Shown here one piece after another: positions 175 through 855 of a stretch of 64,000 nucleotides of DNA (positions within the stretch are counted from its first letter, which is position 1; every line of letters begins with the position of its first letter). The position numbers and the translations under genes are program-made. Source of the stretch: Schmidtea polychroa (Eukaryota); NCBI GenBank assembly GCA_044892525.1, contig CM097885.1, forward strand, positions 21,206,001 to 21,270,000, in the 5' to 3' direction. The notes below the pieces were generated by a model that had not been told where the DNA came from, ran no database searches, and saw only the letters and a program-made list of their open reading frames with translations.

Positions 175-855
175 AGTAGATGGATTGGGCACCGCTGGCA
201 CAGGGCACCGCTAGCACAGTACCCCCCCCCCGTCGGTAAGATTTTCAAAAATATTCTAAGTCTAAAAGTACATTTTTTTTTCAAGGTCAAATTTAAACAA
301 AGACATATGACTCATCAAGGTCATTGAAACAAAGACCATGACTCATCCTATGACTCATCAAGGTCATTTCAAGGTCATATGACTCATACTATGACTCATA
401 AAGGTCAAAAAATTTTTCTCACGGTCATTTAAAACAAAGTCCAGGACTCATCAAGGTCATTTTCAAGTTCATATGACTCATACTGTGACTCATCAAAAAA
501 TTTTCAAGGTCATATGACTCATACTATGACTCATCATAATTTTTCAAGGTCATTTTCAGGGTCATCTGAGTCATCCTATGACTCATCAAGGTCATTTTCA
601 AGGTCGCATGACTCATCCAGGGTCATTCTCAAGGTCATATGAGTCATCGCGATGAGTCATCGAGGTCATATTATTATTTTTAAAAATATTATTATTTTTA
701 TTATTATTTTTAAAAAATATTATTATTTTATTTTTAATTTTTTTTTCAAAGTTCCCGTCAACGAAAATTAATAATCGATAGCTCATTTTAAAGCTCAATC
801 CAAGGCCTTTCGAATGAGCTATATATCTTGTTATTAAGATTATTATTTCTAAAGA

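Follow-up and report, generated by a model that had tools for sequence, protein, structure and literature searches.

According to the available text of PMC8097293, it is not known what switches on the Mavericks of animals, and no particles of them have been observed. Maverick TIRs are 46 to 1,447 bp long (Barreat and Katzourakis 2021, PMC8097293). A terminal array that contains words for two named host factors, as described here, would offer a direct handle on Maverick activation.

The other described systems that come closest are control regions and repeats in viruses. In BmNPV, the enhancer strength of the hr regions correlates with their counts of CRE and TRE sites, across seven regions (PMC13513840). 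The alphabaculoviruses DapuNPV, OpMNPV, and LesaNPV have a 29-bp "non-hr" repeat, to which the available text of PMC4599791 and PMC11139710 assigns no factor or function. The activity of polyomavirus control regions is changed by the duplication of blocks (PMC7762344), and HBV enhancers use both AP-1 and LRH-1 (PMC7077322). Clustered bZIP sites are already known from viral enhancers, so the principle discussed here is not new. In the literature that we searched (which took in few subscription journals and no Repbase Reports), we found no report of factor-site arrays in Maverick TIRs, and we did not find the helical phasing or the match to the unexplained baculovirus repeat in print.

A Maverick element in Schmidtea polychroa

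The window, by which we mean the whole 64,000-nucleotide stretch of Schmidtea polychroa DNA that we analyzed, has a G+C content of about 28%. This, its short introns, and its TAT microsatellites would fit a planarian-type host. The window contains a 23.7-kb Maverick/Polinton (positions 175-23889) with a 6-bp TSD on both sides (Table 1). We assigned it to the Mavericks on the basis of its long TIRs with a 6-bp TSD, its AGT/AG-type ends, and its polymerase B, integrase, packaging ATPase, adenain protease, and double jelly-roll capsid. In TIR length, TSD, AGT-type end, overall size, and this set of genes (with pPolB as the polymerase), it is like the Mavericks of PMC8097293. Unlike them, it ends in AGTAGA instead of (AGT)2, which is a variant of the end forms given in that paper, and it has TBP-like and RING genes. 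For the Mavericks of PMC8097293, the available text describes only 6-bp end motifs and no arrays of factor sites in the TIRs.

Table 1. Features of the Maverick, its two motif arrays, and the nearest host gene, with positions in the window.
Feature	Position	Strand	Remarks
Left TSD, 6 bp	169..174	+	Hexamer identical to 23890-23895
Left TIR, ~0.9 kb	175..1090	+	Begins AGTAGA
Terminal block	175..280	+	G+C-rich 16-bp repeat and C run
Left motif array, 388 bp	281..668	+	16 receptor-type and 15 AP-1-type modules; period ~10.4 bp
Hairpin-forming palindrome, inner TIR	778..822	+	z -2.1; 5/200 shuffles equally stable (weak)
AATAAA, putative poly(A) signal, inner TIR end	1044..1049	-	70 bp past stop of ORF 1119-1550
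Accessory ORF aimed into left TIR	1119..1550	-	Pfam: no family above cut-off
TBP-like gene	4020..4457	-	PF00352, E 2e-15
A32-type packaging ATPase	4557..5183	+	PF04665, E 4e-7
Nested Ty3/gypsy retrotransposon (minimum limits)	5508..10668	-	LTRs identical over 245 nt
Retroviral-type integrase and chromodomain, TAT microsatellite within	10964..12052	+	PF00665, E 1e-5, below curated cut-off
Double jelly-roll major capsid protein	13411..14634	+	Model pLDDT 86; Foldseek
Adenain-type cysteine protease, part of frame	14745..15038	+	PF00770, E 1e-6
Protein-primed family B DNA polymerase; 5' part in other frame	18198..21356	+	Relatives with PF03175
RING-finger gene aimed into right TIR	22435..22761	+	PF13920, E 6e-10
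Right TIR, ~1.1 kb	22757..23889	-	Begins AGTAGA
AATAAA, mirror copy after RING gene	22798-22803	+	Read from sequence
Right motif array, ~604 bp	23177..23780	-	27 receptor-type and 22 AP-1-type modules; period ~10.35 bp
Right TSD	23890..23895	+	Hexamer match to left TSD
Luciferase-like acyl-CoA synthetase, nearest host gene	26740..39509	+	Mapped exons

The model of the capsid protein matched the capsids of iridovirus, PBCV-1, and mavirus in Foldseek (E down to 4e-18); by sequence, the capsid profile had no match among solved structures. PF03175 is present in relatives of the polymerase that are as much as 66% identical to it, and the window's own polymerase ORF had no match to this family at E 0.01 in our Pfam scan. 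Protein searches returned 168 relatives of the capsid and 3,519 of the polymerase (without genomic context), and alignments of the two against viral contigs gave no relatives. As regards the minor capsid, PZ, and PW proteins of Mavericks, the two ORFs between the integrase and the capsid (11998-13053 and 13046-13414) had no informative match in Pfam. A search of a protein atlas found no usable match for two accessory ORFs and one unnamed relative for a third. This copy of the element is probably damaged but young, because the 5' part of its polymerase sits in another frame.

The nested Ty3/gypsy retrotransposon is very young, and its pol frame stops inside the integrase domain. TAT/AAT microsatellites lie inside the Maverick at 11353-11419, 15107-15350, 16905-17122, and 21585-21972; one is in the integrase frame (possibly an intron), and each TIR has one.

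The two ends of the element are identical across 104 of 104 aligned columns of the terminal block, with zero substitutions. This block is likely to be the minimal origin and the integrase end, and we infer that the AATAAA words at the inner TIR ends are poly(A) signals for the adjoining genes.

Two short words tile the outer part of both TIRs

Behind the invariant terminal block, 106 bp inward of the terminus, each TIR has an array of two short words. The first-pass annotation of this DNA had reported about 14 copies of TGA(C/G)TCA and about 9 copies of TCAAGGTCA between 281 and 670, and the exact counts are indeed 14 and 9. A central C is found in 11 of these AP-1 words and a central G in 3, and the full flanks (ATGA[CG]TCAT) are present in 12 of 14. 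All 9 copies of TCAAGGTCA are on the + strand. In the right TIR, between 23177 and 23780, there are 15 TGA[CG]TCA and 21 TCAAGGTCA on the - strand. The left array is also enriched in both words relative to shuffled sequence: 2,000 dinucleotide shuffles gave on average 0.15 AP-1 words and 0.05 TCAAGGTCA, and at most 2 and 1. The remaining 61,800 bases of the window contain 6 AP-1 words and 1 TCAAGGTCA.

Shuffled sequence is not an appropriate null when the words are repeated in tandem, so we added a test at the level of the repeat unit. An AP-1 word and YCAAGGYCR occurred together in 0 of 300,000 random 31-mers and in 0 of 300,000 random 42-mers (window). The products of the single-word rates are about 3e-6 for 31-mers and 7e-6 for 42-mers, for this one pair of motifs among the many other pairs that could have caught a reader's eye.

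We describe the arrays in terms of 9-bp modules, with up to 2 mismatches, that are either receptor-type (N) or AP-1-type (A). The two kinds of module tile about 70% of the 388-bp and 604-bp arrays. Their order is shuffled, with all four successions present and with spacers that vary. The junctions have near-fixed lengths (12 bp for AA, 8-9 for AN, 12 for NN, and 10 for NA), which implies building blocks of 42 bp (AANN) and 31 bp (ANN). Among the mixed junctions, a receptor word followed by an AP-1 word at 10 bp is the most frequent (n = 16 across both ends). The words had been described as often fused, which is an overstatement, as we counted only 3 exact copies of the fused 17-mer on the left and 2 on the right. 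The array had also been described as mirrored in the right TIR; this is roughly true, but the right array spans about 604 bp instead of 388 bp and has extra blocks of 53 and 166 alignment columns.

Most of the modules fit the consensus forms given in PMC7077322: TGA(G/C)TCA (AP-1) is found in 29 of 37 A modules and YCAAGGYCR (NR5A/ERR) in 34 of 43 N modules. This bears out the original identification of the words as AP-1 sites and NR5A/FTZ-F1/ERR half-sites. The core is lost in 8 of 37 A modules and in 4 of 43 N modules, and the conservation of the modules by column is partly built in by the 2-mismatch cut-off. RGKTCA, which is the general form of the receptor half-site, is kept in 39 of the 43 N modules.

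When the two ends of the element are aligned, 32 of 387 columns differ in the array (some through misalignment near gaps), versus 4 of 511 elsewhere in the TIR. Within a repeat that is otherwise almost identical at the two ends, the array is thus a hypervariable mosaic. The ends differ by the shuffling of modules, which goes beyond mere decay after insertion, and the long spacers of the array resemble eroded modules. Some variants are common to both ends: a swap of the central C/G at 566, 639, and 652; G as the last base at 598; C as the first base at 617; AGGTCA changed to GGGTCA at 556; and one change in the outer flank of an A module at 566, outside the 7-mer. The both-end variants are at tolerated positions, and the changes that break the core are at one end only. 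This pattern is only suggestive, because the shuffling of modules blurs which copies correspond.

The pairing of the two words is not fully independent, because both contain GTCA; in one register, 4 of 8 overlapping bases are alike. The window has five other tandem arrays, and these contain neither the AP-1 word nor the receptor word. As single-stranded DNA, the array folds better than shuffled sequences (z -3.3). We gave this score no weight, as the centroid is weak and the AP-1 word is itself almost a palindrome.

A third word, AACAAAG, which we take to be SOX/TCF-like, is also present in the long spacers. It occurs 3 times on the left and 4 times on the right, often after TTTA; there is another copy at the inner end of each TIR, and the word is also found close to internal promoters (positions include 296-302, 328-334, 433-439, 1074-1080, and 23489-23765). 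The window has 25 copies, a weak excess that was equalled in 2 of 100 shuffles.

Helical phasing of the modules

Among periods of 7 to 16 bp, the best period for all modules was 10.40 bp in the left array and 10.35 bp in the right array (mean R of 0.82 and 0.80). On the left, the composites of N then A are separated by 94, 41, 52, 42, and 31 bp, which gives a Rayleigh R of 0.99 at 10.4 bp. On the right, they are 92, 83, 31, 51, 42, and 31 bp apart, with 31 five times in all (R = 0.97 at 10.3 bp).

With the spacing families randomized, the phasing had p = 0.0014 on the left and 0.0022 on the right, and with the long spacers alone randomized, p = 0.023 and 0.026; the two ends are dependent tests, and the phasing test was chosen post hoc. 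Because the long spacers may be eroded modules, we also enumerated a conservative null with four parameters, under which the phasing was matched by 38 (left) and 91 (right) of 10,000 spacing sets. The phasing points to proteins on one face of the DNA and would be silent on whose proteins these are.

The same words in other genomes

Each of three two-gap scans of viral contigs (IMG/VR) found one multi-copy locus (1 of 20, 1 of 11, and 1 of 8 loci), and it was always on the same contig. Judging from gene labels that we read by eye, among them ubiquitin, fgf, and sod, this contig is from an alphabaculovirus. Two controls with rearranged words gave 0 of 21 and 0 of 2 multi-copy loci, which has little power. 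The exact fused word had 6 matches in viral contigs, and all of these were single. The baculovirus locus (L015:2960-3640, and also L152 and L222) is an intergenic repeat that adjoins fgf. It contains 18 CAAGGTCA and 17 AP-1 words with a period of 29 bp and one of each word per unit. A leading G places 17 of the 18 receptor words outside YCAAGGYCR, and the 29-bp period is unphased. In its position next to fgf, its period, and its words, this locus agrees with the published 29-bp "non-hr" repeat.

Per 400 bp, there are 23 and 27 words in the two TIRs and 24 in the baculovirus, versus at most 8 in 59 prokaryote loci. In the metagenome scan, which covered 120 of about 470 estimated stretches in 17 of 64 parts (with full flanks for 80), at least 10 words per 400 bp were found in 11 of the 120 retrieved loci. 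We found no match to the proteins or to the TIR of this element among these 120 loci. The 11 loci are minisatellites of the receptor word in animal-like DNA. They contain 1 full ATGA[CG]TCAT in total, and in several of the arrays, the AP-1-like words are drift variants of the unit. Long TCAAGGTCA minisatellites with periods of about 11-40 bp and without Maverick genes are seen in L076, L109, L104, L053, L112, L049, L083, L089, and L064. The TCAAGGTCA minisatellites of animal-like DNA are a widespread class of receptor-word repeat, and because they are common in animal-like metagenome DNA, arrays of the receptor word are not special to viruses.

Surroundings of the arrays

Both of the genes that adjoin the TIRs (ORF 1119-1550 and the RING gene) are transcribed toward them. 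Because of this orientation, we rejected the idea that the array is a proximal promoter of the adjoining genes.

A CCAAT-box word of 13 bp occurs in identical form at 1590-1602 and at 3217-3229, upstream of accessory ORFs, and there are CCAAT-related boxes near 15469, 22057, and 183, with TATA-like words nearby. The CCAAT-box words are statistically weak (not significant at 2 mismatches). The CCAAT and TATA words are candidates for host-type early promoters, which would be the likely targets of the array.

The first mapped exon of the acyl-CoA synthetase, at 26740, is 2.85 kb beyond the right end of the element. We did not locate the 5' part of this gene (the first ~105 profile positions), so the element may be upstream of the gene or in one of its introns. 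The window also contains a decayed piece of a second, different Maverick polymerase (52373-52882, - strand), an exon of host ASF1 (55022-55381), pieces of a Tc5/pogo-type transposase (40378-43224), and a DUF4371 (hAT-like) transposase (62384-63999).

A putative enhancer at the ends of the element

We propose that the array is an enhancer-type pad for host bZIP proteins and monomeric nuclear receptors and that it drives the internal early genes; we put the probability of this at roughly 0.55. Dimers of host AP-1-type bZIP proteins and a monomer-binding nuclear receptor would occupy the two words. Because of the phasing, these proteins would share the same side of the DNA or of a nucleosome, and the bound factors could then cooperate. 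The pad would open the ends of the element and switch on the internal early genes, and its targets would be the CCAAT/TATA-type promoters that lie 0.9-2.6 kb inside, on the left side. The number of copies would tune its strength, as in polyomavirus control regions. The first-pass annotation had called the array a homotypic enhancer. An enhancer-like pad is still the best reading, given the phasing and the parallel in a baculovirus, but the pad appears to be for two factors and would not be homotypic.

NR5A and ERR are orphan-type receptors that bind as monomers. Steroid and ecdysone elements have either an inverted pair of half-sites (IR1 or IR3) or a direct repeat (DR1-DR5). In the array, every receptor word has the same orientation, the members of close pairs are spaced by 12 bp, and inverted AGGTCA pairs are absent. 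The earlier suggestion of hormonal signals is without support because there is no inverted pair and because the close pairs correspond to DR6. We also rejected a steroid or ecdysone response element on the basis of spacing, as the words are on one strand and the close pairs are DR6 (14 pairs) or DR5 (1 pair).

AP-1 is linked to wound and JNK signalling, and on the basis of this general biology, a trigger by wounding or JNK would be a plausible further step. In a more specific scenario, the phased AP-1 and receptor words would assemble an enhanceosome that acts as an AND gate: injury or JNK signalling in a cell type defined by the receptor would wake the virus, the length of the array would be a dial, and baculoviruses would have reached the same code independently. 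We consider this scenario to be unlikely as a whole. If it were true, it would be the first named trigger for the activation of an animal Maverick, and with each young insertion, the host genome would acquire two enhancers that respond to wounding.

Several features of the array would also be expected of a (nearly) neutral minisatellite, in which slippage during the replication of the termini expanded a TCA/TGAC-rich seed and both words arose by drift from a single core. The differences between the ends are concentrated in the array, some of the modules are broken, the words share bases in one register, and the 11 metagenome loci are alike in the absence of Maverick genes. However, such drift does not sit well with two distinct and near-optimal 9-mers that tile most of the array in four orders, with shared variants at tolerated positions, with the helical phasing, or with the presence of the same pair of words in a baculovirus, and the five other tandem arrays of the window have neither word. 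We doubt that the array is neutral, although we give this explanation some weight.

It is distinctly unlikely, in our view, that host factors bind the array mainly for replication, excision, or packaging, with the array serving as an auxiliary part of the origin and keeping nucleosomes off the ends for the protein-primed polymerase and the integrase. The array is symmetric at both ends, it adjoins the invariant terminal block, and the adjacent genes are aimed at it, all of which would fit. In adenovirus, the NFI/Oct-1 auxiliary sites are within about 50 bp of the terminus; in contrast, this array begins farther in, and it tolerates a large change in copy number. Baculovirus hrs and polyomavirus control regions play both roles (PMC4599791, PMC7762344). 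Support of replication would also be compatible with the enhancer reading, as the two are not exclusive. We give even less credence to the idea that the words are sites for a DNA-binding protein of the element itself (for packaging or replication, or a transactivator), with their likeness to host motifs due to mimicry or chance. Phasing of repeats close to the ends of a viral genome is typical of the sites of viral proteins, several of the accessory ORFs have no assigned family, and the element has its own TBP-like gene. Nevertheless, our Pfam scan of 11 Maverick ORFs found neither a bZIP nor a nuclear-receptor domain, and the two words fit two separate host consensus sequences. Furthermore, an unrelated baculovirus has the same pair, and the element has no AP-1 word outside of the TIRs and the nested retrotransposon.

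Comparison with known systems

The "non-hr" repeat of alphabaculoviruses (PMC4599791, PMC11139710) is like the Maverick array in that both are tandem AP-1 and CAAGGTCA words in the non-coding DNA of an animal DNA virus. It differs in being a single internal locus with a fixed 1:1 unit, an unphased 29-bp period, and a G before CAAGGTCA. The baculovirus hrs are likewise repeated viral cis elements with clustered bZIP-type sites, and they are both enhancers and origins (PMC13513840; Landais et al. 2006, pmid 16198391, as cited there). In contrast to the array, hrs are imperfect palindromes of about 30 bp at dispersed loci, whereas the array is made of 9-bp modules, is confined to the two TIRs, and includes receptor words. 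We rejected the classification of the array as an hr: it has clustered bZIP sites but not the palindromes.

The polyomavirus control region (PMC7762344) resembles the array in having factor sites beside an origin and in the duplication and rearrangement of blocks, and HBV (PMC7077322) resembles it in having AP-1 and NR5A words in one virus. These regions have few sites, of many kinds, and are not terminal repeats, whereas the Maverick array is a phased array of 30-50 sites and two words. By analogy with baculovirus hrs and with the control region of polyomaviruses, the array may work in the same way, while being a member of neither class.
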